Source: a virus. Taken from it: a stretch of 64,000 nucleotides of DNA. The first letter of the stretch is position 1. Every line of letters starts with the position of its first letter. The stretch is taken from the IMG/VR virus record IMGVR_UViG_3300030090_003995, positions 23,980-87,979 of that record. One strand, 5' to 3'. The translations under genes were made by a program, and so were the position numbers. This document shows, piece by piece, positions 1,888 to 24,389 of this stretch. A model generated the notes under the pieces. It was not told the origin of the DNA. It searched no databases and saw nothing but the letters and a program-made list of their open reading frames with translations.

Positions 1888-2331
1888 ATGAGTTGGTTTG
1901 ATATATTAAAAGCCCAACAAAGGTTATTTAGCGAACCCCCTTTAACAGAAGAAGAGGAAGCAGTTTTAGATGAAGGATTGGAGGAAAATCCATTCTTGAG
2001 ACCAAGGGAAGGTAAAGTCTTAGCAGCGACCGAAGACCATAAAAAGCCTAAAAAATCAAAACAATTAAAACTTCCGGGTGCGCCTATTAGAACAAAAGTT
2101 CCTATATCTGAATTTAGAGATGGTTCTAGTCCAACAGGTGATGATACAAAATTAACCGTTCAACAACAAACAAGACTGGCTCAAAAAGAACCTAGAGGGC
2201 ATTTTAAAGAATTAGCCAATGAAATGACAAGATTGGCATTACGTTCTCAAAATTCTGATGGTCAAAAACAAAAGAAATTATTAGGGCGTATGAGAATGCG
2301 ATTAGAAGAAGAAAATATACCGAGGGCTTAA
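1888..2331 (+). CDS. MSW-ILK leader protein (putative internal virion cargo)
   Basis: Starts MSWFDILK after a GGTGAT RBS. Confidence 0.7.
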   Translation: MSWFDILKAQQRLFSEPPLTEEEEAVLDEGLEENPFLRPREGKVLAATEDHKKPKKSKQLKLPGAPIRTKVPISEFRDGSSPTGDDTKLTVQQQTRLAQKEPRGHFKELANEMTRLALRSQNSDGQKQKKLLGRMRMRLEEENIPRA

Positions 2332-5500: not shown

Positions 5501-5937
5501 CTAATACATTAATGGACCAAGCAACTGCTATGGTTATGAATTACAAAGATGACGATGGTAAGATTGTTGAAATACCTGAAGATGCAGCGCCTTATTTAGA
5601 AATAGTAGAACAACGATTTAAACAGGCTAGAGATGAGGCTTTAAAGGTTCAAGCAGAAAGTGAAGATGATGAACTTCCTAAAGAGTTCCGTTCTAAATCT
5701 GGCACAACAATTAATTTTGATGAGTGGTTACAAAATATAGAATCGGCAAAGGCTGAAGCGCAATCTAAGAAGTTAGATGAAAGAAAATATGGTGAAGATA
5801 AAAAGGTTAAGAGAAAACCTAAGAGACCTGTTGTTAAATTACCAGAAACAAGAACAATTGATGAAGAGAGAGAAAGAGGAGAAAATTTGTTAGACCCTTC
5901 AATTCTAAGAAGACCTGAACAGGAGGAAGAAGAATGA
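2557..5937 (+). CDS. large, highly charged coiled-coil protein, possibly an internal head protein
   Basis: About 1126 aa, K/E/D/R-rich and helical; ATG 2557 after GGTGAG; no recognised catalytic motif. Confidence 0.7.
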   Translation: MTLLKAYLMNKRDPFTLAKAFLDVLKDEQAWREEQLGELGAKYFSDAMEFYEDELAEINGKIVENNSKIKEIRTRLAPNYTFEDKIEYEGPDGETFIRRETRGLTDEESNLERLELESAESLNNDYAEIRESVNGHLSDLTTHYTNLTGEEYDRSDENKIRLTLKGLKILADRIDDLGEIKPPDSIKQLDANLENAKKLYERSLEELKSDLQEKNAPQDIITNATAKLKRKFDTKMSTLESSRSGMSKSYESLLSQKYKLEQRIIRGKKDLERMGIDVKEYGPKYSKESDFKKPQSKPETAEEKKAREEKEEQENLERRIDLKKQALVRLAKRALEWEKQGFIPGPKYKAGRRKTTGKLDRDYARPIKSGKYKGITLKGDEVELDAKMTKLVNDSNIGVNELISQVNKLNPNLTISLPETQKTVDVKRDIRGLPIRDKDGNEIPVKFGENKPYTQEEISRAKSQEQKEYMVRMNNLGIGKGKRKVKQTAGNLKNWKEWREEFSRVVSDENLQLMRNQLNDFFKDLDPEVMRLFDKDAHSTDTTRFGLASSKEGSDGNIKWTKHVSRRKTLQILGKIFSEALRTDILSDIQKVNAEKILNAIDEELGISGGKQIREQPVADQQVTNMMELLQDFYDETQILLESDTDDEWNEEPVERLEDLTEEVAQLLQDMDEENPSQEDYVNLLIRYHLINVTIRELGRELPNQALQAKRSLREYLDSLENRYEDMYGNIADDKLQSLQRLAQDSTDSEEDKRKLEQEIRRTSTKTSWKPPKGYHDKDDTVRRRERVKLHKAELQMHIDIFKRLSEGGEVKITKPIRHPDQTDKEYAEAKRRFEPKVISGKKIPKRQGNQRPLKQLAEMVIPKFKVDMEKSRQKRLYGKILTQERIDGIRNNLVAELGRGEEVDIENFDSLYSSAVDIIGPKSYTDRYKQVKTLTGKELEQLGLEDVKEEFLARRVRGEGTDDEEFIPDSEISDADEFDAANTLMDQATAMVMNYKDDDGKIVEIPEDAAPYLEIVEQRFKQARDEALKVQAESEDDELPKEFRSKSGTTINFDEWLQNIESAKAEAQSKKLDERKYGEDKKVKRKPKRPVVKLPETRTIDEERERGENLLDPSILRRPEQEEEE

Positions 5938-6287
5938 GTTGGAAAAAGATATTAAAATTTCAATCTGACGGTTTAGATGAACATAATGTGGATGAACTTC
6001 TTGTTCATCCAATTGAGCGATTAGGTTTCCGATTACAAACGAATGAGTCATATATAGTTGGTGATAATCCAGAATCAGGAGAAGCCGGATGGAATACCGG
6101 ACAGTATTCTTTGGATTTTGCCCACACAACAGGAACGCGATATACTGTAAAAAGGACACATATACGTGCTACCCCCACATCTCCCCAATATTATATTTTT
6201 AGGGGTAATGAGGGAATTGTTGGTAAACCTTTCAATTATATAGAAGTAGTAGATTGGTTTGAACACGAAGCGGAGAGTTTATCATGA
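5934..6287 (+). CDS. MSW-ILK leader protein
   Basis: Starts MSWKKILK; ATGA overlap with the upstream gene. Confidence 0.7.
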   Translation: MSWKKILKFQSDGLDEHNVDELLVHPIERLGFRLQTNESYIVGDNPESGEAGWNTGQYSLDFAHTTGTRYTVKRTHIRATPTSPQYYIFRGNEGIVGKPFNYIEVVDWFEHEAESLS

Positions 6288-6616
6288 CGTGGTTTGAAGT
6301 AATTAAAGAAGATAGTCCGGCTTTGGCTAGTCTATCACAAAAAGAAAAAAAGAAACTCAAAAAGGTTTTGCAAGCAGCCGAACCTTCAGAATACTTTGGT
6401 CAAGACTTTACAAGAATGGGAGAATTGATTGAATTAATGAGAGAATTAGATTTGGTTAAGGGAGATAAAAAAATGCAAAAGAAAATGAAATCTATTTCTG
6501 AGCAAAATGTAGATGTTGTCGCTATGGCTGCTAAATTGCGAAAAGAATATGAAGAAATGTATAGACAACTTCGACAAATTGTATATCCTAAAAGCAAGGG
6601 GTTGAGAAAGAAATGA
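6284..6616 (+). CDS. MSW-ILK leader protein (helical)
   Basis: Starts MTWFEVIK. Confidence 0.7.
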   Translation: MTWFEVIKEDSPALASLSQKEKKKLKKVLQAAEPSEYFGQDFTRMGELIELMRELDLVKGDKKMQKKMKSISEQNVDVVAMAAKLRKEYEEMYRQLRQIVYPKSKGLRKK

Positions 6617-6876
6617 GTTGGGAAAATATAATTAAAATGAGAAGAATTATTCCTGAAGTAGAGGAAGTCATGCCCTATTATAATGGGTTAGATGAATTAC
6701 TCACTATGGTTAAAAAAGATATGGAAGAAGTTGTAAGTTTTATTATGAATGATGATTTAGAAAGGGCCGAAATTAAGTGGGATAAAATGAAAGGAGGCAT
6801 TCTCGATTTAGAAGGAACCTTTACTGGAATTAAAGACGTTAATGCGTTTATTACTAGATTATTAGGTGATGCTTAA
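6613..6876 (+). CDS. MSW-ILK leader protein
   Basis: Starts MSWENIIK. Confidence 0.7.
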   Translation: MSWENIIKMRRIIPEVEEVMPYYNGLDELLTMVKKDMEEVVSFIMNDDLERAEIKWDKMKGGILDLEGTFTGIKDVNAFITRLLGDA

Positions 6877-7022
6877 TGAGTAAAATGGATTTCGCTAAAG
6901 CGAATAAAGAACTTAGACATCATATTATTTTAATGCTTGACCATTTTGATAATCAAGATGAAGAAGGTTGGAACAAACTACTTAAAATTGCAAGATTTGT
7001 GGTGGAGGTAGATTATAAATGA
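6876..7022 (+). CDS. hypothetical protein (48 aa)
   Basis: Manual translation MSKMDFAKANKELRHH...GWNKLLKIARFVVEVDYK*; overlaps both neighbours and fills the gap exactly. Confidence 0.6.
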   Translation: MSKMDFAKANKELRHHIILMLDHFDNQDEEGWNKLLKIARFVVEVDYK

Positions 7023-7264
7023 GCGAAAATAAAGATGAAACGCTAGAAGTTCTGAAATTATTAGTGGATAAAATCCAAAAATTAGAAGAAACTGTCTATA
7101 ACAATGACAACGTATTAATGAAAGCGGGTCTTGTAAAGGTTGATAGTCCAACACCAAGTATGGGCGGTGGAGATGGGGTTATTCCTGATTCTAAGGCTAT
7201 TGCTAAGATGAGTTGGGATGAAATCAATACATTGGTTACTCGATTAGGAGGCGGAACAATATGA
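7019..7264 (+). CDS. small protein with a scaffold-like C-terminal helix
   Basis: N-terminal coiled coil; C-terminal IPDSKAIAKMSWDEINTLVTRL resembles the C-terminus of the protease-scaffold. Confidence 0.65.
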   Translation: MSENKDETLEVLKLLVDKIQKLEETVYNNDNVLMKAGLVKVDSPTPSMGGGDGVIPDSKAIAKMSWDEINTLVTRLGGGTI

Positions 7265-7779
7265 ATACTGAAGAAATCTTGAAAAAGTTAAAAGAGATTC
7301 AAGTCGAGGCGATTAATAATCTACATAGTGATGATAAAGAAAGTCAACTTCAAGTCGCTGATAAAGAAAAATTACCGAATGAAGAACTTGTTGGTGGAGA
7401 AGAAGTTAAGATTAAAAGACCAAAGGCTGAAAATGTTAAAGTTCCTGATAGTTTAAGTCGAACAACACCAATGGCCGGCCCAACAAAATTCAATACGCCT
7501 GAAGAGGTTTATACAAGTGGTGAAAAGAAAAGCATTACAATTGAATCAATCCAAGCACAATTAGACGATTTAAAAAAGGATATGAATGCTGATAGATGGG
7601 GCGGAGAATTAGGTAATTTATTAATGGAGGCTGAATCATATTTAACTGAGCATGAGCAAAACAGGCGAGAAGGTAAAATTAAATATGACCAACAGGATAT
7701 TGATGAATTAAGGATTGAAATTAATAGAAATCCTCCTAGCCCTGGCAATATTAGAAATGTCTTAGCCCGATTTCCGTGA
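7261..7779 (+). CDS. hypothetical head-module protein
   Basis: ORF track; starts MNTEEILK (leader variant). Confidence 0.65.
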   Translation: MNTEEILKKLKEIQVEAINNLHSDDKESQLQVADKEKLPNEELVGGEEVKIKRPKAENVKVPDSLSRTTPMAGPTKFNTPEEVYTSGEKKSITIESIQAQLDDLKKDMNADRWGGELGNLLMEAESYLTEHEQNRREGKIKYDQQDIDELRIEINRNPPSPGNIRNVLARFP

Positions 7780-7784
7780 TTAGT

Positions 7785-10340
7785 ATGCCATTAAGCGGTC
7801 TTAGTTTTAGAAAAGAGAAAAACCCTCTTTCTAGGCGTATTCAACGCCTATTTGAACAGATTAGGGCCGACTATCTATCTGCTAAACAACAACCTAAAGA
7901 ATTCGCTAAAGATTGGGAAAAGGCAGTTGATAAACTAATAAACATTTATTCAGATATTGACGACCTTTCTTCTCAATTAAAAACTGTATTAGAAGAGAAA
8001 GATTTGAATTCTTCTGAAGCGAAGGATGCTACCTCTTCAACTGCCCAAAAAGTGTATAATGCTGTTAAAACTTTAAGATACGACAGTGACTACGTTAGAG
8101 ACCCCTTTGTTAAAAAGTTTGGTAAAGAGGTTCTTGAGAAATTATTAGAGAGTAAAGCCCATCTTGCTCTATTTATCCATTGGTGTCTTAGAAATGACCG
8201 AAATGCACTTCCTAGAGAGTTTTGGGAGGAATACCTGCCCGAAGGTGACAAAATAACTGACGGGTATGAGGGTCTTGACCTACATGAGAAGGCGATAGTA
8301 CCCTTCATTACTGAACATTATGGGGATGGAAAAAATAGTCAAGGTGTTAAAGCAAAAGTTAAGGGGTCTATGGCCTTATTTAAGGATTTATACACACGTT
8401 TCTATTCCAAATCCGAGTGGGCCGAGTTACTTGGCCTCGATATTGAGAAGTCTGAAAAAGATAAAAGCGATATTAACTTCATGGTTCCAAATAAACCAAT
8501 GTATAGGATTTTTGAGATTGATGATATTAAAGAGTTACGCGGTTTTACTGGAGATTGGGTTGTTCAAGAAAAATATGATGGTATGCGAATACAATTACAT
8601 AAAATTGATAATAAGGTGAAAATCTTCTCATTTAATGGTAATGATATTACAGATAAATGTCCAGAACAAGTTAAAATTCTCAAAGAAAAGAAGTTTGGGG
8701 AATGTATCTTAGATGGGGAGTTAATGTTATCAACGAAAGAAAAGCCTCTTCCCCGCGCTCAAGTTATTGCTCATGTATTTAAGAATAAAGAAGTTGATGG
8801 GGAGTTAAAGGTTCATGTTTTTGATATTATGCGCCATAATGACCGTGATTTAGCAGATTCTCCTTTACAAGATAGAATTAACATTTTATTTCAAAATTAT
8901 TCCATCCATTCGGATGAAAAATTAGCGTTCCCATCTAAGAAAGACACGCGAATTGCAGATAGTTTAGAAGATATTCAACGTTATGGTAAAGAAATTATGA
9001 AAATTCCAACATCTGAGGGTGTTGTCATTAAAGATTTAACTTCTACTTACATTAAAGGTGCGAAAAAGAATCCTAAGTGGATAAAATGGAAAAAATTTGT
9101 TGATTTGGACCTTATTGTTTTAGATAAGAAAACAACTAAGTCTAATCTAAATTCTTATACTCTTGGGGCTGGCCCATTAACTATGGAACAGGCTCGCAGT
9201 TTACAATCTGAGAAGATAAATGATAGATATTACTTAAATGTTGGGAAGGCTCTTAATACTAAGATAAATGTTGAAGTTGGTAAAATTGTTCGTGTGACTG
9301 TTGATGAAGTTAAGAAGAATAGAAAGGGCCAATATCGAGTATTTACTGCAAAAGTCATTGAGATTCCTGAAGTCGAACATCCTGATAAATTAATCACTTT
9401 AGAGTTGTTAGCCGGTGAAGGTGAAGTTAAAAATTATAAGGCTAAAGCATTAGAAAAGGGATATTCTATTACCGACGATATACATGGTGAAACAGAAGTT
9501 ATTCTTAAGCATGATTTAGACGGCTTTACAATTTATGGATTTAAAGATAATAACTTAATGTCAAAGAACGCGTTAGTAGATTTAGACCTTGTTAAAGAGC
9601 AAATTTCTGAATTAATAACAAAATATTCTAATCAAATGAAATCATTAATTATGACCATAATTAGAAGAAATGGTAATAAAATGACTTTAGAAGATATTAT
9701 AGAAGAAGGGTTAAGAGATAAGAATTTTAAGAAGATTTATGAAAAACACTATGGTAGTCCTAAAGAATTAGGAAAGGCTATGAAAGATGACAAAATGGAT
9801 GGTATAATTTTATTAGACAATATTCATTTTTCTACAGCAAATGAGAAGGAAGCCGAAAAAGTAGAAGTTGAGACTAACCCTGATGTTATTGTTAAGGAGT
9901 ATAAAACTCCTGAAAAGTATAGAAAAGGTAATTTTAAATTGTATCTTAGAAAAGATGAAAACTTAAATTTAACCTTTCAATTAGGGGAAGAAGTTATTGG
10001 TTGGGAAATTCAAATTGACTCAATTGATAATGTATTTGATTTATTTGGTAAAGCAGGTAAGTACCCTGCTAGGATTCAAGAAACAGTTTCAAAGGAAAAA
10101 CTAATTGATAAAGGTTCTGTTGAGTTAGGCGTACAAAGACATGGTTATCACGAATACATCTTAAAAGGCGAAAAGTTTGATACTAAACTTCATTTAAGAG
10201 TTGTCCCATTAAAGGACCAAAAACAATGGATAGCGTTTTCTAGTTTTGTAAAGGAACCTGTTGAACCCTCCACAGATGATGGTATATGGGATATTAGAGA
10301 GGATGAGAACAAGGATTTGTCCTTTGAAAGTCTTGAATAG
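7785..10340 (+). CDS. multidomain ATP-dependent DNA ligase in the head module (N-terminal helical domain + adenylation/OB domains + degenerate LigD phosphoesterase-like C-terminus)
   Basis: Motif I QEKYDGMR, III ILDGEL, IIIa VFDIM, IV EGVVIK, V WIKWK; C-terminal LIDKGSVE...YILKGEKF...WIAF. Confidence 0.85.
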   Translation: MPLSGLSFRKEKNPLSRRIQRLFEQIRADYLSAKQQPKEFAKDWEKAVDKLINIYSDIDDLSSQLKTVLEEKDLNSSEAKDATSSTAQKVYNAVKTLRYDSDYVRDPFVKKFGKEVLEKLLESKAHLALFIHWCLRNDRNALPREFWEEYLPEGDKITDGYEGLDLHEKAIVPFITEHYGDGKNSQGVKAKVKGSMALFKDLYTRFYSKSEWAELLGLDIEKSEKDKSDINFMVPNKPMYRIFEIDDIKELRGFTGDWVVQEKYDGMRIQLHKIDNKVKIFSFNGNDITDKCPEQVKILKEKKFGECILDGELMLSTKEKPLPRAQVIAHVFKNKEVDGELKVHVFDIMRHNDRDLADSPLQDRINILFQNYSIHSDEKLAFPSKKDTRIADSLEDIQRYGKEIMKIPTSEGVVIKDLTSTYIKGAKKNPKWIKWKKFVDLDLIVLDKKTTKSNLNSYTLGAGPLTMEQARSLQSEKINDRYYLNVGKALNTKINVEVGKIVRVTVDEVKKNRKGQYRVFTAKVIEIPEVEHPDKLITLELLAGEGEVKNYKAKALEKGYSITDDIHGETEVILKHDLDGFTIYGFKDNNLMSKNALVDLDLVKEQISELITKYSNQMKSLIMTIIRRNGNKMTLEDIIEEGLRDKNFKKIYEKHYGSPKELGKAMKDDKMDGIILLDNIHFSTANEKEAEKVEVETNPDVIVKEYKTPEKYRKGNFKLYLRKDENLNLTFQLGEEVIGWEIQIDSIDNVFDLFGKAGKYPARIQETVSKEKLIDKGSVELGVQRHGYHEYILKGEKFDTKLHLRVVPLKDQKQWIAFSSFVKEPVEPSTDDGIWDIREDENKDLSFESLE

Positions 10341-10376: not shown

Positions 10377-11714
10377 ATGGCGAGCGCAACGCTTCAACAA
10401 AGTGCGACAATTAGAACAAATAATCCTTCTGATTTTCAAATAATTAAATCTGATGATTTATACATTGGTGGATATGCTTCTATTGAATTAGTAGATAAGC
10501 AAAACGATTTAATTACATTAGAAGCATTAAATGATGCTGTTAAAAAATTCATGCAAGCACCAAGATACAGAAACGTTATGAATAATCATTCAAATGTTCA
10601 AGTTGGTGAAGTAGTCAAAGAATATCGAGATAAGACAGGAAAATTATGGAAAACTGATGTTGATGATGTTGGTTTTTTTGTTGTAATAAAATTAAGAGAT
10701 GATATTGAGAAGGCTAAAGAAGTTAGTCGGGACATTAGAAAAGGTACTCTTCGTTCTTTCAGCATTGGGGGTCAAGCACTCGAAAAGCGTAAACGAGAGA
10801 ATGATGAATTAGGAAAGTTTAATGAAATTAGTAAATTGGAATTGCATGAAGTAACTATTTGTGAAAAAGGCATTAATCCAGAAGCAAAATTTGATATTCT
10901 AAAACAAGACAGTGGTGATAACATGACCGAAGTTACAAAAGCGTTAGAAGAACTAAACTCTCTCTTAAAAGAAATTAGAGGAGAAAGTGTATCAAAAGCC
11001 CCTAATCCAAAATCGGAAGAGGGATTTGAAATGCAAGAATTACCGGAAGGTGAAGAAAAAATGACAAGTGAATATTTAGACACTGAAGAAGAAACTGAAG
11101 AATCACCTGAAATGCTAGAAATGGCAGAAGGTGAAGAAGAGGAAATGATGGAATTAGCCTCAAGCGAAGAAGATGACCCTGAAAAGGAATTAAAGAGCAA
11201 AACAAGCCATACCCATGAAACACAATTAGTGGATGAGGCTGGTCTAGAAGTTGTAGTGGGTGGACAACCTTCAACAAAACATGGACAGCGTAAAGATATG
11301 GGGATTCCTGCCGGAACTGAAACCAAAAAGTCCATTTATGGTGGAGATACACCAACACTCGATTTGAGTCCTGAGAATCTTGAAAAGGCTTATGCTGAAT
11401 TTAAGGCTGAGCAAATGGAAAAAATGGCTTACAATGATATTAAGTCGTCTTTCCAAGCACGATTCGATGCTGAAGTTGCAGCAAAAGCAGATTCAATCGA
11501 GAAGGCAAACTATGACCCACGAAGTGAGGTCAACGAACTTAAAAAGCAGTTTAGTGAGTTAATTGACACACTAAAGGGTGAGAAGGAAAATGTTATCCGA
11601 AAGCAACAAGAGGCTGTTGATAACCTAAACATTCCTTCAGGTGATGATTTGGCTAAGATGGATTGGAATGAAGTCCATTTGGCTATGGCTCGACTAGAGC
11701 GCAATTTCCGCTGA
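10377..11714 (+). CDS. HK97-family prohead protease fused to an acidic/coiled-coil scaffold
   Basis: IGGYAS..VDKQND, MNNHS (His), SFSIGG (Ser), LHEVTI...NPEA; immediately upstream of the capsid gene. Confidence 0.9.
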   Translation: MASATLQQSATIRTNNPSDFQIIKSDDLYIGGYASIELVDKQNDLITLEALNDAVKKFMQAPRYRNVMNNHSNVQVGEVVKEYRDKTGKLWKTDVDDVGFFVVIKLRDDIEKAKEVSRDIRKGTLRSFSIGGQALEKRKRENDELGKFNEISKLELHEVTICEKGINPEAKFDILKQDSGDNMTEVTKALEELNSLLKEIRGESVSKAPNPKSEEGFEMQELPEGEEKMTSEYLDTEEETEESPEMLEMAEGEEEEMMELASSEEDDPEKELKSKTSHTHETQLVDEAGLEVVVGGQPSTKHGQRKDMGIPAGTETKKSIYGGDTPTLDLSPENLEKAYAEFKAEQMEKMAYNDIKSSFQARFDAEVAAKADSIEKANYDPRSEVNELKKQFSELIDTLKGEKENVIRKQQEAVDNLNIPSGDDLAKMDWNEVHLAMARLERNFR

Positions 11715-11742
11715 ATACGGATTAAAAAAAAGGTGATTAAAA

Positions 11743-13107
11743 ATGGTAAAATATATTAACACTATCGCTGACCTTGAACAAGCCACTTACGGTACGTTTG
11801 GTGGAAATAGCGACATTCTGAAAAGTGGTGGGTCTTTACTCGGACTTCACACAGCACACGATACAAACGCAACAAACGCATTTGTTGGAACTGCGGCTTC
11901 AAACCTCAGTAACTTGTATAACGTAATTTATGGACAGAAAGTTTGGTCAATGCTCAATCAAGAGATTAACCCACTTTCTATTCTTCCTAAGCGACCATAC
12001 ACTTCAAGCGGTTGGCGCGTATTAATTGACCGACCTGCTGGTGGAAGTGCTGCGGCTTTTGCGATTGGAACGCAAGATATTACTGCAACTCCAACTGCTG
12101 ATATGAGCGCACCTTCAGCCGATAGTATCGGTGGTGTGAAAGAAAACCACGCTTTGAATAGTGTTGGACTTTCTGAACTATCTCCAGAATATGCGACCTT
12201 ATTTATGAGTCCTAAGACTGTTGCGCATATGTTCGGTTATTCCGAAGTTGCAGCAGAAATGGCGAAAATTGATGATGGTATCGGTGATATTCGTAACATT
12301 GTTCGTGAAGATATGGGTAAATTCCACGCTGAGGTTCAGTCCAAAATGCTTGTAATGCCTCTTGAAAATTACGACCACTCAAGTTATGCAGATATTGAAT
12401 TAAACTACACTTCATTATTGAAGATTGTAGCAAGTAGTCAAGAAATGGAGGCTATGATTGATGCAGGTATGCACGGTTCAATGGGTGGTTCTTCATCAAC
12501 AGGCGGTTTAGTAGACCAAATGAGTTATTTGTATGGAAACAATTCTCGTGATTTGGTTGCAAATGCTTACAATGAATCATATATGGATGCTTATGTCAAT
12601 TATGGTAGTGGATATGCTGCTGGCGATGTTCGAGCATTAACTCTAACTTTGCTTAATACTACTTTGCAGAACCTCCGAACAAACGGTGGTACGCCAAAGT
12701 GTATCTTAACTGGATATGATACAATTCAAGCAATTGCTGATTTGTTACAGTCCCAAGAACGATTTATGGAGCGAAAAGAAATTGTTCCTACACATAATGG
12801 TGTTCGTGGTGTAAAGGGCCGAGAAGTCGGTTTCCGAGTAGCGACATATTTCGATATTCCGCTAATTCCATGTAAAGATATGGCAAGCACAGGTGAAGCA
12901 ACAGGTAAACTAAGCGATTTATTGTTCTTAGACACTGACCATCTTTGGATGGCTGTAATGAAACCAACTCAATACTTTGAGGATGGTATTAATTCTGGAA
13001 ACCCATTCGGTGTTGGCGCACTTGGAAACAAGGCCATGTTCCGAACAATGGGCGAAACTGGCTGTACTTTCTTTAAGGGACAAGGCAAGATTACTAACGT
13101 GAACTGA
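11743..13107 (+). CDS. major capsid protein (HK97 fold)
   Basis: Position after the protease; 454 aa; YGQKVWSMLNQE, IPLIP, LLFLDTD, QGKITN patterns of archaeal tailed-virus MCPs; AGGTGA RBS. Confidence 0.85.
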   Translation: MVKYINTIADLEQATYGTFGGNSDILKSGGSLLGLHTAHDTNATNAFVGTAASNLSNLYNVIYGQKVWSMLNQEINPLSILPKRPYTSSGWRVLIDRPAGGSAAAFAIGTQDITATPTADMSAPSADSIGGVKENHALNSVGLSELSPEYATLFMSPKTVAHMFGYSEVAAEMAKIDDGIGDIRNIVREDMGKFHAEVQSKMLVMPLENYDHSSYADIELNYTSLLKIVASSQEMEAMIDAGMHGSMGGSSSTGGLVDQMSYLYGNNSRDLVANAYNESYMDAYVNYGSGYAAGDVRALTLTLLNTTLQNLRTNGGTPKCILTGYDTIQAIADLLQSQERFMERKEIVPTHNGVRGVKGREVGFRVATYFDIPLIPCKDMASTGEATGKLSDLLFLDTDHLWMAVMKPTQYFEDGINSGNPFGVGALGNKAMFRTMGETGCTFFKGQGKITNVN

Positions 13108-14701: not shown

Positions 14702-14914
14702 GTGCTTTTAGACTTATTTGGTTTAGATGAAACGTCTGTTGCTTATGATATGACAAGAGCGCATTCTGCTGATATATTATTTCTAAAAATGAGAGCAATT
14801 ATGTGGTGTATAACAACAGGTGTTGGGGCATTATTAATTGGTAATATATGTGGAGTATTTGGAATTAATTTCTTTGGTATGACTTGGGAATGGTTAACAG
14901 GGTTGTGGCATTAA
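14702..14914 (+). CDS. small membrane protein
   Basis: Hydrophobic Gly-rich segment followed by a Trp-rich amphipathic C-terminus. Confidence 0.6.
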   Translation: MLLDLFGLDETSVAYDMTRAHSADILFLKMRAIMWCITTGVGALLIGNICGVFGINFFGMTWEWLTGLWH

Positions 14915-15270
14915 TGAGTTGGCAAGATATTTTAAAGAATGATGAAAGAAACCCTAAATTTAGGGAAGGAGATGAATTGGAGGGCTATTGGATTAGTGAT
15001 TATATTAGTGATTATATTTTTGAGGGAAATAAATTACGCTCGGGTAATAGTTGGTGGGAAGAAGCCGCTGGTGAAGATTACTTGGATAAGTTATTAAAAG
15101 AATTCATAGAAAGTGGTGAAGAATATACTAAAGAAGCAGTAGATAAATGGTTGGAGAAAAATATAAGTCAAGAAGAATTTAATAGAATGGCTAAAGAAAT
15201 TAGAGATGATGATTACGGCCCAGACTATGAAGATTTTGGACCGGTTGAAGGATATAAAGATTATTATTAG
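14914..15270 (+). CDS. MSW-ILK leader protein (acidic)
   Basis: Starts MSWQDILK at ATG 14914 (TAATG overlap). Confidence 0.7.
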   Translation: MSWQDILKNDERNPKFREGDELEGYWISDYISDYIFEGNKLRSGNSWWEEAAGEDYLDKLLKEFIESGEEYTKEAVDKWLEKNISQEEFNRMAKEIRDDDYGPDYEDFGPVEGYKDYY

Positions 15271-15279
15271 GTGATTAAA

Positions 15280-15453
15280 ATGAGTTGGTTTGATACATTA
15301 AAAATGCACTGTGGAACTAAACAGAAAGTAGATGATGATTTTGAAAAAACAAAAGGAATTGCTAGACAGTTACGGCCTGATTTCAAACCTGATTTTAAAG
15401 AAAAAGATACCAAAAAGTACGGAATTAAACATCAAATACGTAGAGGTCAATAG
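15280..15453 (+). CDS. MSW-ILK leader protein (basic)
   Basis: Starts MSWFDTLK after taggtgattaaa. Confidence 0.65.
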   Translation: MSWFDTLKMHCGTKQKVDDDFEKTKGIARQLRPDFKPDFKEKDTKKYGIKHQIRRGQ

Positions 15454-15463
15454 GTGATTTCAT

Positions 15464-16132
15464 GTGTCAGTTGTTGCAGGTTTCGCAATTGTTTGTTTAG
15501 AAGCGGCAGGTTCATTTTGGAAAAAATTTCACGCAATTAATTTTGGAGTCTATGGTGCATCAAGAGTTGGAAAAACTACTTTACATAGACAATTACGAAC
15601 AAGAGGAGAAGTACCTGAAATCAAAAAAAGAACGGTCGGTTTAGAAAGAGCAACAAGAAAACTGGTTAAAATTGATAAAGATATGCACACAATCAAAGCC
15701 GCAGATATTGGAGGAGAATCAGCATATTGGAATCTTTGGAAAAAAGATATGAGAAAAAGAAAACCAAAACACGTTATATTCATGATAGACCATCGGCATT
15801 TAGAAAGTAATGTAAATATGGATAACCAATTAGCATGGCAGTATTTTGTTGATTTAATTTGTGACCCATATTGGAGAGATGGAAAGAAAAAGAAAAGAAA
15901 AAAGGATAAAGATTATCCAAAGTCTATTGGTATATGGGCAAATAAATACGATTTATGGGGGAAAGAAAATGGATTCAACGACATTTCAAAACACCCTATT
16001 TTTGAACCATTCGCGTATGGAATGCAACGACTTAATGAAATTGGAATACCTTGTTTCAAATATGTCGTTAGTGCAAAATCCGACCCTGAAATGGTATATC
16101 GCGGAGTAATGACAATGTGTGATGATTATTAA
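15464..16132 (+). CDS. Arf/Sar1-like small GTPase (Ras superfamily)
   Basis: G1 GASRVGKT, G2 RTVG, G3 DIGGE, G4 NKYD, G5 SAK; hydrophobic N-terminal extension. Confidence 0.85.
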   Translation: MSVVAGFAIVCLEAAGSFWKKFHAINFGVYGASRVGKTTLHRQLRTRGEVPEIKKRTVGLERATRKLVKIDKDMHTIKAADIGGESAYWNLWKKDMRKRKPKHVIFMIDHRHLESNVNMDNQLAWQYFVDLICDPYWRDGKKKKRKKDKDYPKSIGIWANKYDLWGKENGFNDISKHPIFEPFAYGMQRLNEIGIPCFKYVVSAKSDPEMVYRGVMTMCDDY

Positions 16133-16142
16133 GGTGATTAAA

Positions 16143-16406
16143 ATGAGTTGGCAAGATATATTAAAGGATGATGCAAAATGGGGCAGAATCCATCAACATC
16201 TAAAAGATAAATTAGAAGAATATAAACGTGACTACCCGTCTGCAAACACTTTAAGTTTTAATAAATTTGACGAAATTTATGAAGATATTATACAGGCGGC
16301 TATTGAGGATGAACAACGTCTACAAAAATTGGCTAAATATGCAGGATTTAGTCATTTTAATCCTCAACATCAAGGAAAAAGTGATGTGGTGGCGTTTTAC
16401 TATTAG
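16143..16406 (+). CDS. MSW-ILK leader protein
   Basis: Starts MSWQDILK after taaggtgattaaa. Confidence 0.7.
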   Translation: MSWQDILKDDAKWGRIHQHLKDKLEEYKRDYPSANTLSFNKFDEIYEDIIQAAIEDEQRLQKLAKYAGFSHFNPQHQGKSDVVAFYY

Positions 16407-16415
16407 GTGATTAAT

Positions 16416-16607
16416 ATGAGTTGGGATGATATATTAAAATTAGAAACTCCCCTACAAAAACCATTGAATGAAGCGTTAAGATTGTTAGAACCAACCACGC
16501 GCTATGAGATGGATGAAAGCAAGCAACAATACCAAGATTTAAGGAATGCTATTACTAAATTTTTAGAATGGGAACAAACGTTTCTACTGAGCCAAAGAAA
16601 TAGGTGA
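16416..16607 (+). CDS. MSW-ILK leader protein
   Basis: Starts MSWDDILK after taggtgattaat. Confidence 0.7.
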   Translation: MSWDDILKLETPLQKPLNEALRLLEPTTRYEMDESKQQYQDLRNAITKFLEWEQTFLLSQRNR

Positions 16608-16612
16608 TTAAA

Positions 16613-17170
16613 ATGGGTTGGGAAGATATTCTAAAATTAAGATACAAGCCACCGAAAAAATTTGGATACGAAAGTGATGCAGATTTCAAGAGAAGATTGG
16701 CAGCATACGACCGAAAATATCAAAGTGACAAAAGTAGAGGTGTTTTAGGAACAAGAGAAGAAATTGAAGCCGATGAGCAACGTAAGAAAGATAAATTTGC
16801 TCAAAATCAAAAAGAATTAGAGGAATCATCAATTGATTGGAATAAAGCACTAAACACTATGGTTTTGCTAGAAAAAGAAGTAAAACGTAGATTTGAACCG
16901 AGAGGTAATGACCCCGGAGAAAGGATGTTACAAAATGTATTTATAAATGCGGCTAATAAACCAATGCGAGAATTAGCAGATATTTACCTCGCTCAACCTA
17001 AAGGTTCAGAAGGCGGAATAAAAGAATGGAATAGAGCAAGAAGGTATCTTGCTCAAGTTTTACTTGACCCTCGATATGTTGGTCTGTTAAATAATTTAAG
17101 ATTAGCGCGTGATGATGAGTCATTAGAAAGGTTTCTTGAAAATAATGGGTTTGGAGATGGTTCTGAATGA
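16613..17170 (+). CDS. MSW-ILK leader protein
   Basis: Starts MGWEDILK after taggtgattaaa. Confidence 0.7.
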   Translation: MGWEDILKLRYKPPKKFGYESDADFKRRLAAYDRKYQSDKSRGVLGTREEIEADEQRKKDKFAQNQKELEESSIDWNKALNTMVLLEKEVKRRFEPRGNDPGERMLQNVFINAANKPMRELADIYLAQPKGSEGGIKEWNRARRYLAQVLLDPRYVGLLNNLRLARDDESLERFLENNGFGDGSE

Positions 17171-20249: not shown

Positions 20250-21344
20250 ATGGTTAAGTTATCATCACCATCTGACTATACGGCAGTAAATCCTAACTAT
20301 GCTATTGGGCAAGGGTATTACACTAACGAAGATAAAATAGCAGATTTACTACAAATACCATCTTTCTCCGCCACGACCAATCCATCTTACGACCAAGTGG
20401 GCGACATTATTAAGGATGTAGAAGACGAAATAGATGAAAAAACCGGAATGTCGTTTAGACCAATCATTTACGCGAATGAGATGCACAATTTTCGTAGTCC
20501 AACGGGCGGGTCTTTGCGAAAGTGGCCCTCATGGTGGTCAGACTACGTTGGTTTTTGCCAACTAAACCACAGACATATCCGCAAAATGATTAGAATAGAA
20601 GTTTGGCAGGGAAATAGGTGGACAGACCTTTGTTCGGCAACTGCAAAGGTTAGCGTGTCTAATGACCAAGTTGGTTCTAGCGGTTCTATTACACTAACAT
20701 TACCTAATAACGTAACATTCGTTTTAAATAAAGGAACGACAAATAGCCAATACAATAATGCCTATGGTGCTAAAACTATTGCTCAAGAAATTTGTCATTT
20801 AATAAATGAAACCTTTCCTTCAATAACTGCTAGATTTACAGGTGCTACTGCTTCTAAATCTTTAGTGGGTTCAGATGGAACTAATGTTTCTGATTTCTTT
20901 TATGCTACTGTAAATACAGAAGATGAAACTGAAGTTATAATTTCTTCATTATTACCCGGCGATGATGGGTCACAATGTTCTATTGCAGTAACAGGTTCGG
21001 GTTTAACTAAAAGCGATTTTACAGATAATGAAGAAATGAAACGTCTTGGTACATGGTGGAAAGTAGATGAAGAAGGCCGTATTTTCTTTAGAACCAAATT
21101 TCCTTATATGGAAAAAAATTCAATTCGTATGACTTATATTGCAGGTAATCCTAGAGTTCCCGGAATTATTTCTCAAGCAGCAACAAAAATGTCAGCGATG
21201 GAAATTTTACGGCATGATGACCAAACAGTGTTAATTGCAGAATCAGGTTCACAAATTGATATTAAAACTAAATACGACTTGTTAAAACAAGAAGCCGCAG
21301 AATTATTGAAACTTACAAGAGAAACTATCTTTTTGATTGAGTGA
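20250..21344 (+). CDS. putative head-tail adaptor with an inserted domain
   Basis: N-terminal YT...IADLL / IKDVEDEIDEKTG and C-terminal IRMTYIAG..VPGIISQAA pattern of connector proteins; lies between head and tail genes. Confidence 0.6.
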   Translation: MVKLSSPSDYTAVNPNYAIGQGYYTNEDKIADLLQIPSFSATTNPSYDQVGDIIKDVEDEIDEKTGMSFRPIIYANEMHNFRSPTGGSLRKWPSWWSDYVGFCQLNHRHIRKMIRIEVWQGNRWTDLCSATAKVSVSNDQVGSSGSITLTLPNNVTFVLNKGTTNSQYNNAYGAKTIAQEICHLINETFPSITARFTGATASKSLVGSDGTNVSDFFYATVNTEDETEVIISSLLPGDDGSQCSIAVTGSGLTKSDFTDNEEMKRLGTWWKVDEEGRIFFRTKFPYMEKNSIRMTYIAGNPRVPGIISQAATKMSAMEILRHDDQTVLIAESGSQIDIKTKYDLLKQEAAELLKLTRETIFLIE

Positions 21345-21349
21345 TTAAT

Positions 21350-21754
21350 ATGTCATGGACTAATATTCTAAAAAATGAGTCTCATTTTATTTGGAATGCA
21401 GATATATTTTCTTGGTCTGATAAGCACAAAGAGTGGCTTGAAAGTTTAGATTGGGGTCAAATTAGACAATACAAAACAGGATTTCCAATTTGGCAGATAG
21501 AAAAACACTTCAATTCTCAAATTACTGACTTAAAGGGAATTATGGATAAGGCATGGGAAGCCCTTTCAGAAAATCTTGAAGATAAAAAAGAGTTACAGCA
21601 ATTAAGTGATAGTTTAGGTAATCAATATCAAGAGATGATAACAGGGATTCTTAATCATGCTAATGATGCATTTAGACAAATAGCAGGAATTCAATATGAT
21701 TTGGCAAGTCAAGATGAAGCAACAGGAGCAGTTAAACTAAAGTGGGTGGAATAA
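21350..21754 (+). CDS. MSW-ILK leader protein
   Basis: Starts MSWTNILK. Confidence 0.7.
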   Translation: MSWTNILKNESHFIWNADIFSWSDKHKEWLESLDWGQIRQYKTGFPIWQIEKHFNSQITDLKGIMDKAWEALSENLEDKKELQQLSDSLGNQYQEMITGILNHANDAFRQIAGIQYDLASQDEATGAVKLKWVE

Positions 21755-22032
21755 TGACGTGGGATACTGTTCTTAAAGTTAGAAGAAAAATAAATATGCC
21801 TCATTTAAAAAGAATTGTAGACCATATTTTACCAAACATGGTTGAAGATGAATTTGCGTTATCAGATTTAGCAAAAATGGTTACAACGACTTATTTAGAA
21901 TATAATCCTAATACTAAACGGGCGTTAAATATATCCTCTATTTTAAGTCAAATGTTACAAAATAGAGGATATGAGCAGTTTTATAAATATTCTAAGGGTC
22001 AACGTTTAACTTATTATAGGAAAGTGCAATAA
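21754..22032 (+). CDS. MSW-ILK leader protein (possible winged helix)
   Basis: Starts MTWDTVLK; three helices followed by a beta-hairpin pattern. Confidence 0.65.
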   Translation: MTWDTVLKVRRKINMPHLKRIVDHILPNMVEDEFALSDLAKMVTTTYLEYNPNTKRALNISSILSQMLQNRGYEQFYKYSKGQRLTYYRKVQ

Positions 22033-22850: not shown

Positions 22851-24389
22851 ATGGCAATTAATAGCGAAGTATTTCTGGGTAGTGGCGCAAGTTTAATGTT
22901 TGTGCCAGAATTAGATTTTTATGTGAAACCAAGCGCAAATCCGGCAACAGATGATACATCAGTTGCTTTCCATAGTGATATAACTTGGGCTAAATTAGTA
23001 ACTAATTTATACACTGGTTGTACATTAGAACTGCGTAATGCTTCAAATAATTTTATTTCCTCACATAAAGTAACTAGTAATACATATAATACTCTACATT
23101 TTACACCAAAAGTTACTGCAACAGGAACATTAACTAATTATTACTATATTTTAAAAGGTTTTGCTGCTCCATTACCCGCACCTGATGGTTCAGGACACGC
23201 AAGACTATGTGCAGACAATTGGTTAGGTTTAGTAGAAAGTGCTACTTTTCCTAACATTGATATTGAAATGAGACAAATGAATAATCAATTAGGTGGGACT
23301 AGAAATTTTAGTCATCAATTTAAAGGGATTGAAACTACTTCAGGAGGAAATCTTGGACTTGTTCTTACTCACCCATGTTGGCTATATTATTTCTTAGGCA
23401 AAGCCGGGACTGTAACACCTCATACTGATTTAATTACTGCTAACACAGGTCTTAATTCTGATGTTAGGGCATCATCTACAAATGGTTTATTTATTGATAA
23501 TGGGGCGCATTTAGCACAAGGTCCGATTTTCTACCGTTCTATTGGTGATAAAGTAGTTCCACCACTTATGAAAGGGGCAGATGCTTATGGAAGTATGGAT
23601 TTAGTGGCTTTACCAACATTGGCTAATAAATTAATTACATACGCTTTTACAGAAGCAAATGGTGTAAGTTTACCTTCCTTTTCACTTGAACAAAATTTAA
23701 GTAAATTGGAAGATAGTGATGCGTATGTTGATTCTACTGAAACTAATGAATCTCATAACTTTGTTCGAATCGCAAGAGGAAATAGAGTTAATACATTGAC
23801 ATTAACTGCTAATGAAAATGAAGAAGTTAAAATGACTTTAGATTTAAATAGTAGCACTATTGATACACCAACAACTGATTATACATATCAAGGGAGAAGA
23901 GGTGTAACTGCTGATTCTAGTTTATTTAACAATAATGCTAGCCAAGATTCATATAATGAACCATATTTCTTTACTGACGGTGTTATTTCTATTTATGGTC
24001 AAACCTTTTTAAAGATTCAATCTTTCTCATTAACAATGAATAATAACTTAATGGATAAGAGATATGTTGGTATGGCAAATAAAAAAGTCAAAGATTCTAT
24101 CCCAGCACAAAGAACATATGAAATATCATTCAGTGCTTTAGTTACAGATTCAAAATTATTTAATGAATTAAGACAAGCCGGTGAAAATACTAGTAATGAT
24201 ATGACATTGACCTTTACTAAGGCAAATAATACTAATGAAACATTTAATATTACTTTCCAAAATTATATCACAAATTCTGCAAATTGGACTATTCCGGAAG
24301 ATAGAGGCCCAGTTACTGTTGATATGACAGTAAATCCTAGAACGATGAGTAGTTGCACAGCAACAACAAATTGGGTTTTACAGGGGTGA
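22851..24389 (+). CDS. major tail tube protein (siphovirus type) with insertions
   Basis: PSFSLE, GNRVNTLTLT, SFSLTMNNNL motifs; upstream of chaperones and tape measure; strong RBS. Confidence 0.75.
   Translation: MAINSEVFLGSGASLMFVPELDFYVKPSANPATDDTSVAFHSDITWAKLVTNLYTGCTLELRNASNNFISSHKVTSNTYNTLHFTPKVTATGTLTNYYYILKGFAAPLPAPDGSGHARLCADNWLGLVESATFPNIDIEMRQMNNQLGGTRNFSHQFKGIETTSGGNLGLVLTHPCWLYYFLGKAGTVTPHTDLITANTGLNSDVRASSTNGLFIDNGAHLAQGPIFYRSIGDKVVPPLMKGADAYGSMDLVALPTLANKLITYAFTEANGVSLPSFSLEQNLSKLEDSDAYVDSTETNESHNFVRIARGNRVNTLTLTANENEEVKMTLDLNSSTIDTPTTDYTYQGRRGVTADSSLFNNNASQDSYNEPYFFTDGVISIYGQTFLKIQSFSLTMNNNLMDKRYVGMANKKVKDSIPAQRTYEISFSALVTDSKLFNELRQAGENTSNDMTLTFTKANNTNETFNITFQNYITNSANWTIPEDRGPVTVDMTVNPRTMSSCTATTNWVLQG

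Follow-up and report, generated by a model that had tools for sequence, protein, structure and literature searches.

Why should one short peptide ending in lysine recur at both edges of a head protease, shortly after the capsid protein begins and as the last residues of a leader carried by small proteins that otherwise have nothing in common? The question is raised by a 64,000-nucleotide stretch of viral DNA (positions 23,980 to 87,979 of the IMG/VR record IMGVR_UViG_3300030090_003995), referred to here as the window, which belongs to a viral genome of 87,979 bp, has a G+C content of 34.6% and encodes a proteome of 20,731 amino acids. Its (+) strand bears the head module of a tailed virus, with genes for the portal, a protease-scaffold and the major capsid protein (MCP), and the opposite strand an archaeal-type replication set. 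This gene content fits the published description of magroviruses, tailed viruses of Marine Group II archaea (PMC5434244), and identifies the window as the head module of such a virus. Both in that description and in a 2025 survey (PMC11706807), the magrovirus head genes were described by homology alone, and neither mentions maturation sites or leaders. We propose that the recurring motif is most likely the place where the viral head protease cuts. This is a well-supported but unproven prediction from sequence comparison; for the reading as a whole, in which the [IVL]-[LI]-K sites are the cut sites of the head protease, we estimate a probability of roughly 55%.

Lysine-ending motifs in the head genes

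The gene at 10377..11714 (+ strand) encodes a protein of 445 amino acids in which a prohead protease of the S78 type is fused to a scaffold. It matches the Pfam families PF04586 (Peptidase_S78, 38.2 bits for a cut-off of 21) and PF14550 (24.3 bits for a cut-off of 24), as well as PHROG families of head maturation proteases, with matches down to 2e-18. Its residues His71 and Ser129, invariant in the 27 sequences of alignment A2, correspond, in an alignment with HK97 gp4, to the NHK His and the MSVG Ser, which we take to be the catalytic residues of that enzyme. The end of this gene at 11714 adjoins the start of the MCP gene (11743..13107, + strand), whose 454-amino-acid product belongs to the HK97 fold family and matches Pfam SU10_MCP and phrog_24667 (major head protein). 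The portal gene lies in the same head module (240-1883, + strand), and the closest named relatives of both protease and MCP come from haloarchaeal viruses such as HVTV-1. The identities of the two genes, assumed in an earlier note on this DNA, are thus borne out by the Pfam and PHROG matches.

Sites are written below as P3-P2-P1|P1', with h for a hydrophobic residue. Residues 1-24 of the protease-scaffold (10377..10448), a predicted N-terminal propeptide, end in FQIIK (aa 20-24, 10434-10448) and are followed by Ser. The protease domain proper (aa 25-176, 10449..10904) ends in FDILK (aa 172-176, 10890-10904), followed by Gln. Beyond it, in the same chain, come an acidic linker and a helical C-terminal scaffold part with a conserved tail (aa 177-445, 10905..11711), the C-terminal motif being MDWNEVH at 11658-11678. 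In the MCP, DILK occupies aa 24-27 (11812-11823) between Ser23 and Ser28, and the open reading frame (ORF) beginning at 1888 starts with the leader MSWFDILK (1888..1911, + strand). The earlier note had located all four of these motifs and taken them for maturation cleavage sites; translation confirms each position.

The tetrapeptide DILK occurs seven times in the window proteome for 0.5 expected, at five leader ends and two proposed sites, and ten times genome-wide for 0.8 expected, at seven leader ends, the two proposed sites and one other position. The pattern F-x-I-[LIV]-K, expected 0.8 times in the window proteome, is found three times, namely in the leader of ORF 1888 and at both protease edges. 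Could such recurrence be a coincidence in a proteome rich in Lys, Ile and Leu? The generic form [ILVM][ILVM]K is indeed common and shows no enrichment, with 108 occurrences in the window for 94 expected and 144 in the genome for 126. Nine of the ten DILK copies, however, fall at leader ends or at the two sites, and the sites are completely conserved over two clades in which synonymous change is free (see below), so that coincidence is hardly credible and was rejected on the conservation data. The same counts speak against any generic motif of two hydrophobic residues and a lysine (hhK), which we also rejected: as it is enriched neither in the window nor in the genome, the signal must lie in the specific motif and its positions.

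The remaining DILK of the genome lies 12 residues from the C-terminus (..LAKDILKDWEEC) of a 291-amino-acid protein encoded from G000:C1 19721 onwards, 4258 bases before the window start. As to hhK near N-termini, it is present within the first 20 residues of 20/43 ORFs on the strand of the late genes (1-39100, +) and of 4/36 on that of the early genes (39279-63981, -); some of the late-strand cases are due to alternative start codons further upstream. Immediately before the protease gene lies that of a protein of 854 amino acids with an ATP-dependent DNA ligase domain (7776-10340), which contains nine hhK sites; of these, VVIK417-419 is the sole conserved one. Because the other eight are poorly conserved, processing of this ligase-like protein as a polyprotein is unsupported, and cuts in it were discarded.

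Conservation of the sites and strictness of the lysine

The close relatives examined are 80 IMG/VR loci whose MCPs are 60-95% identical. In all 60 distinct MCPs among them the tripeptide is [ILVM][LI]K, set between five upstream residues that are 19% identical and five downstream that are 39% identical, and the N-terminal helix of the protein is highly conserved. The N-terminal site of the protease, F-x-I-[LIV]-K-S, is kept in 57/58 relatives, after a stretch variable in both its length and its sequence (identity 0.31) that holds a further hhK at about aa 6-9 in 36/59 of them. At the other edge, CEKGINPEA[KR]FDILK is invariant (58/58), and immediately after Lys176 identity falls to 0.22, in a variable and acidic linker. 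Other hhK sites behave otherwise: they are embedded in conserved core, as are protease VIK103-105, MCP LLK225-227 and VMK405-407 and two in the portal, or they are not kept. The last position of the leader, taken over 97 distinct ORFs of close relatives, is Lys in 91 and Arg in one. At each site the Lys marks, on one side, the precise end of conservation. At the codon level, six Leu codons and both Lys codons are in use at the three sites among the relatives; since synonymous codons vary freely, selection acts on the peptide, and an explanation at the nucleotide level was rejected.

A second magrovirus clade, for which 80 loci were fetched with an 8-sequence alignment of more distant MCPs, has MCPs 35-38% identical to that of the window. 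Their layout is a helix, a variable linker and [DE][IL]LK|ADAP, and in the proteases of this clade [LIV]-[LI]-L-K precedes the first core strand and the domain ends in F-[RSK]-I-L-K. The earlier note had made its reading depend on the conservation of ILK in relatives, and all three sites are in fact kept in about 60 distinct relatives and in the second clade.

In a wider set of 88 full-length representatives of distant MCP clusters, a hydrophobic P3 followed by any residue and Lys (h-x-K) is found in 82, mostly with the Lys 16-17 residues before the conserved YG..VW motif, the first motif of the core. P1 is Lys in these 82 and Arg in at most two of the 88; P2 varies freely (Q, R, A, T, M, L) and P1' is mostly Ala, Asp, Ser or Thr. 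Since P2 is free, the rule of the family is h-x-K followed by A/D/S/T and not hydrophobic-hydrophobic-Lys. The latter, put forward in the earlier note as the site of this protease, is too loose within the genome, where it is not enriched and most sites of the ligase-like protein are not conserved, and too narrow for the family.

The strictness of the lysine calls for an explanation. An invariant Lys with almost no Arg could be kept for some other covalent chemistry, such as a modification of the lysine or isopeptide cross-linking of the kind seen in the HK97 capsid. The cross-linking Lys of HK97, however, sits in the E-loop and not before the N-arm. HK97-like capsids do use a Lys in cross-linking (PMC12749128), but a capsid cross-link would be senseless on the protease or on the roughly one hundred unrelated small proteins that bear the motif, and we regard this explanation as very improbable. 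A lysine is also the P1 residue of the HK97 prohead protease, which cuts the capsid protein gp5 at TFNK103|S104, in agreement with the earlier note; it is the only S78 protease with a mapped cut site that we know of. From the conserved Lys and its context we infer that the sites are cut, and that the cutting enzyme is the viral S78 protease, which would cleave after Lys with a hydrophobic P3 and, in this clade, with Leu or Ile at P2.

Applied to the capsid protein, this rule would place a cut after Lys27 and remove a propeptide of 27 residues (11743..11823) made of the conserved helix, a flexible Gly/Asn-rich linker of variable length and the DILK motif. The mature MCP is accordingly predicted to begin at Ser28 (11824-11826). 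Of the PDB searches, only that with a profile of the distant MCPs gave a match, to the capsid protein of cyanophage Mic1 (6J3Q, E = 9e-10), the one solved homologue of the MCP family, and this protein begins at about residue 51 of the window MCP, without the whole N-terminal module. For Mic1 a scaffold gene has been reported and a protease has not. The module formed by aa 1-27 therefore lies outside the shared core and is absent where no protease is reported.

Leaders, scaffold tail and a predicted loading code

Eleven ORFs of the window start with M-[STG]-W-x-x-[ITV]-[LI]-K. Besides MSWFDILK of ORF 1888, the leaders lie at 5934-5957, 6284-6307, 6613-6636, 14914-14937, 15280-15303, 16143-16166, 16416-16439, 16613-16636, 21350-21373 and 21754-21777. 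In the 80 related loci we found 112 leader ORFs, 97 of them distinct, with the consensus M-[ST]-W-[EKQF]-[DEN]-[IV]-[LI]-K. After Lys8 there is no conservation at all among the 97, the leader thus being a tag common to small proteins that are otherwise unrelated. Internal in-frame copies of the leader, the mark of a polyprotein, were not found.

The front half of this tag has a counterpart in the scaffold. In all relatives of both clades (L001-L162), the C-terminus of the scaffold reads M-[SD]-W-x-[DE]-[IV]-[HN], and tail and leader have in common the core M-[SD]-W-x-[DE]-[IV]; the L-K that follows in the leader is absent from the tail. As the leader front copies the scaffold C-terminal tail, the tagged cargo would reach the same docking place as the scaffold. 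A second copy of the tail motif, MSWDEIN (7208-7228, + strand), lies near the C-terminus (KMSWDEINTLV) of an 81-amino-acid ORF (7019-7264) with 42 orthologues in related loci.

The loci of the second clade contain no MSWxxILK leaders. They have a leader of their own, M(xxx)xAWx[LIVF][LI]K, also seen as M(NP[IF][DE])xAWx[LIVF][LI]K (L086-L162). A search for W-x-h-h-K retrieved 67 ORFs in 38 loci, 49 of them distinct and a few spurious, nearly all on the strand of the MCP gene, and left about 40 genuine distinct ORFs on the + strand (for example L098:9139-9594 and L091:5087-5338). Among 46 distinct A-W forms, 42 end in Lys, and over the leaders of both clades Arg occupies the end position once in total. 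The Trp and the h-L-K end are the sole features that the two leaders share.

These observations can be assembled into a scheme of head maturation. The scaffold tail and the leaders would dock inside the shell during its assembly, on the inner face, where the N-terminal helix of the MCP is a candidate partner, though this is a guess; the front half of the leader (M-S-W-x-D-I) would bring the cargo to the docking place of the scaffold in the procapsid. Once activated, the protease would remove its own N-propeptide after Lys24, part itself from the acidic linker and scaffold by a cut after Lys176, trim the MCP and, cutting after Lys8 of the MSWxDILK leader, free the cargo, which would comprise at least 11 small late proteins. 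The leader would then be a composite of a copy of the scaffold docking tail (M-S-W-x-D-I) and a Lys cut site of the protease (I-L-K), by which the virus would fill the procapsid with a quickly changing set of small proteins, free them inside it and deliver them with the DNA into Marine Group II archaea. We advance this fuller scheme tentatively and would give it somewhat less than even odds. The double role of the leader, as address and cleavage signal, had already been suggested in the earlier note; it agrees with a scaffold tail that has the same core without L-K and with a clade 2 leader that keeps the W and the h-L-K end, both functions being inferred from these patterns.

The motifs might instead be conserved for folding or docking and never cut. 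FxILK and FDILK would then be the first and last beta-strands of the S78 domain, the LLK of the MCP an N-arm element or a scaffold-docking surface, and the W..ILK of the leader an address helix that stays on the cargo. Several observations favour this explanation or otherwise weigh against cleavage. An h..K at the domain end is general in S78 proteases (AAMK|SVDG in HK97 gp4, VVSK|ADGD in HVTV-1, TSVK|S in an Oceanotoga phage) and the Pfam S78 model extends about seven residues beyond Lys176. The protease-edge motifs may hence be strands of the fold and not cut sites. Proteases with N-extensions of about 90-170 amino acids (L085, CRP-6, HVTV-1) keep an hhK that stands 7-9 residues before the first core strand, a point in favour of cleavage, but the occurrence of the edge motifs across S78 proteases fits an ancient self-processing and two structural strands equally well. 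The conservation of the MCP helix, likewise, fits a propeptide with a role in assembly and a retained part of the protein equally. The residues after the MCP Lys are conserved in the wider family (ADAPVLTSTTG), and this Lys could belong to a structural element of the N-arm. The scaffold tail, with its W-x-x-[IV] core and no L-K, indicates a docking role that exists independently of cutting. Moreover, conserved hhK in folded regions (protease VIK103-105, MCP LLK225-227 and VMK405-407) would need protection from cutting. Structure prediction gave no help to the cleavage reading: the AlphaFold2 models of the MCP (alignment A1, pLDDT 45.5) and of protease aa 1-215 (A2, pLDDT 40.9) were both too low in confidence for a fold search, for judging the accessibility of the sites or for telling strand from linker. 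Sequence and profile searches of the PDB gave no match for the protease and none for the MCP clade itself, and papers on ChaoS9, P1 and D3 and a review of haloarchaeal viruses contained no Lys-site data for relatives.

Against an uncut structural motif stands the lysine. Arg can usually stand in for a structural Lys, but it hardly ever occurs at these four independent kinds of site, and on one side of each site conservation stops right at the Lys. Two different leaders agree only in the W and the h-L-K end, whereas the scaffold tail, which ends its protein and needs no release, is without L-K. Finally, the HK97 protease cuts after Lys in the same h-x-K|S context. Conservation for folding or docking alone thus appears unlikely to us, although it deserves serious consideration. 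We favour cleavage, with a difference between sites: those of the MCP and of the leaders are more likely to be cut than the two protease edges. Of the protease domain bracketed by cut sites, as the earlier note had it, what stands is that conserved motifs occupy both edges; these motifs being general in S78, they may be structural strands.

Supposing that the sites are cut, the scissors could also belong to the host, a protease of Marine Group II archaea whose substrate the viral peptides would imitate. There is a precedent in staphylococcal phage 80alpha, where the host protease Prp cuts capsid and scaffold proteins that mimic ribosomal protein L27 at its N-terminus. As in that case, the leader and the MCP site lie a short way from the N-terminus, and nothing more specific points to a host enzyme. 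80alpha-like phages, however, are without a prohead protease, while the present virus encodes its own S78 enzyme with catalytic His and Ser intact, the same motif brackets this enzyme, and a P1 Lys fits the one known S78 specificity. A host protease is therefore an improbable agent, and the viral S78 protease remains our candidate.

Magroviruses, whose archaeal hosts abound in the ocean, count among the most numerous viruses in its surface waters, and to our knowledge none has been cultured. A defined cut rule (h-x-K, here [IVL]-[LI]-K) yields exact predictions for the mature MCP, the active protease and the free scaffold, and two-gene expression in E. coli has earlier been done for HK97 and D3. 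The puzzling MSW leader becomes a testable code in two parts, loading and release. If the scheme is true, the leader would mark the magrovirus proteins likely to travel inside the capsid; archaeal viruses would have in it their first code for loading cargo into capsids, and so would HK97-type proteases; and the h-x-K cut would go back to the ancestor of a large family of capsids from marine archaeal viruses.

Some further features of the leader genes and their surroundings can be added. Six leader genes are preceded by a near-identical junction, (G)GTGATTAA(A/T)ATG, at 1873-1890, 15265-15282, 16128-16145, 16401-16418, 16598-16615 and 21335-21352, which holds a Shine-Dalgarno-like GGTGAT that itself includes the upstream stop codon. 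The ORF at 7019 has, at about residues 8-13 (window 7019-7060), an E-[ML]-[LM]-x-L-[LM]-K that is conserved in its 42 orthologues, as is the helix that follows. The next ORF, at 7261, starts with MNTEEILKK (7261-7284), a leader-like peptide without W that is kept in four orthologues. In two divergent relatives, proteins of 88-89 amino acids encoded just downstream of the MCP gene (L084:11095-11364, L084:11377-11643 and L083:9509-9775) start with M-x-x-x-Y-T-E-[IL]-[LF]-K, to which ASPLRGG is joined; here too a short peptide at the N-terminus ends in hhK.

Comparison with known systems

The nearest cultured relative is HVTV-1 (Druskaviridae), a haloarchaeal virus whose protease domain is about 33% identical. 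It has PVFK|S before the core strand and VVSK|A at the domain end, and its MCP has GGMSK|ADNLLD, 17 residues before the YG anchor. It differs in its long N-extensions, of about 170 amino acids in the protease and about 100 in the MCP, and in a P2 that is not hydrophobic.

A protease followed by a scaffold in one polypeptide, as found here, is also the arrangement of phage P2 gpO, in which an N-terminal protease and a C-terminal scaffold form a single chain; self-cleavage of gpO separates the two, and it also removes about 30 residues from the capsid protein gpN. The P2 enzyme differs, as far as is known, in protease family and specificity, and no cargo leaders accompany it.

HK97 offers the closest match in the enzyme itself. 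Its protease belongs to the same Pfam family, with catalytic His and Ser that align; its cut, TFNK|S, has the same form (h-x-K followed by a small residue) as DILK|S; the domain end of gp4, AAMK|S, aligns with FDILK|Q; and the protease and MCP genes are adjacent in both viruses. The two differ in where the scaffold is placed. In HK97 it is a domain of 102 residues (the delta domain) on the MCP, which is removed (PMC12749128), whereas the magrovirus scaffold is carried by the protease and the predicted MCP propeptide has 27 residues. HK97 has no library of leader-tagged proteins.

For such a library the giant phages and T4 are the better parallels. In phiKZ, 201phi2-1 and SPN3US, many head and ejection proteins are cleaved at S/A-x-E sites, and their propeptides terminate in the protease motif and frequently contain two or more sites (PMC9026906). 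Multiple sites per propeptide recall the two hhK in 36/59 of the protease N-propeptides here; the giant-phage proteases, however, are homologues of gp21 with a Glu at P1, and their carriers are bacterial jumbo phages.

In T4, cleavage follows an L/I-x-E rule, a capsid targeting sequence of 10 residues directs proteins to the head, and the protease gp21 has its own motif near both ends, being processed at the C-terminus and having a site near the N-terminus (PMC9026906). An N-terminal tag of about 10 residues that ends in the site suffices to load unrelated proteins into the T4 head (PMC9026906). The resemblance to the magrovirus is threefold: a three-residue rule in which P3 is hydrophobic, P2 free and P1 charged; the recurrence of this rule in capsid protein, scaffold or core proteins and protease, seen in the magrovirus at the sequence level only; and one short N-terminal peptide common to otherwise unrelated proteins. 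The differences are as clear. T4 uses a gp21-type protease and a P1 Glu, and the magrovirus an S78 protease of the HK97 type and a P1 Lys; the magrovirus host is archaeal, its scaffold is fused to the protease and its leader copies the scaffold tail. With an S78 protease and a Lys-ending motif, the magrovirus system would work like the T4 targeting system without being a member of it. We thus predict that archaeal viruses possess a Lys-based counterpart to the code for cleavage and targeting known from T4; if the sites are indeed cut, another protease family, in viruses of another domain of hosts, would have arrived with Lys at the logic that T4 follows with Glu.

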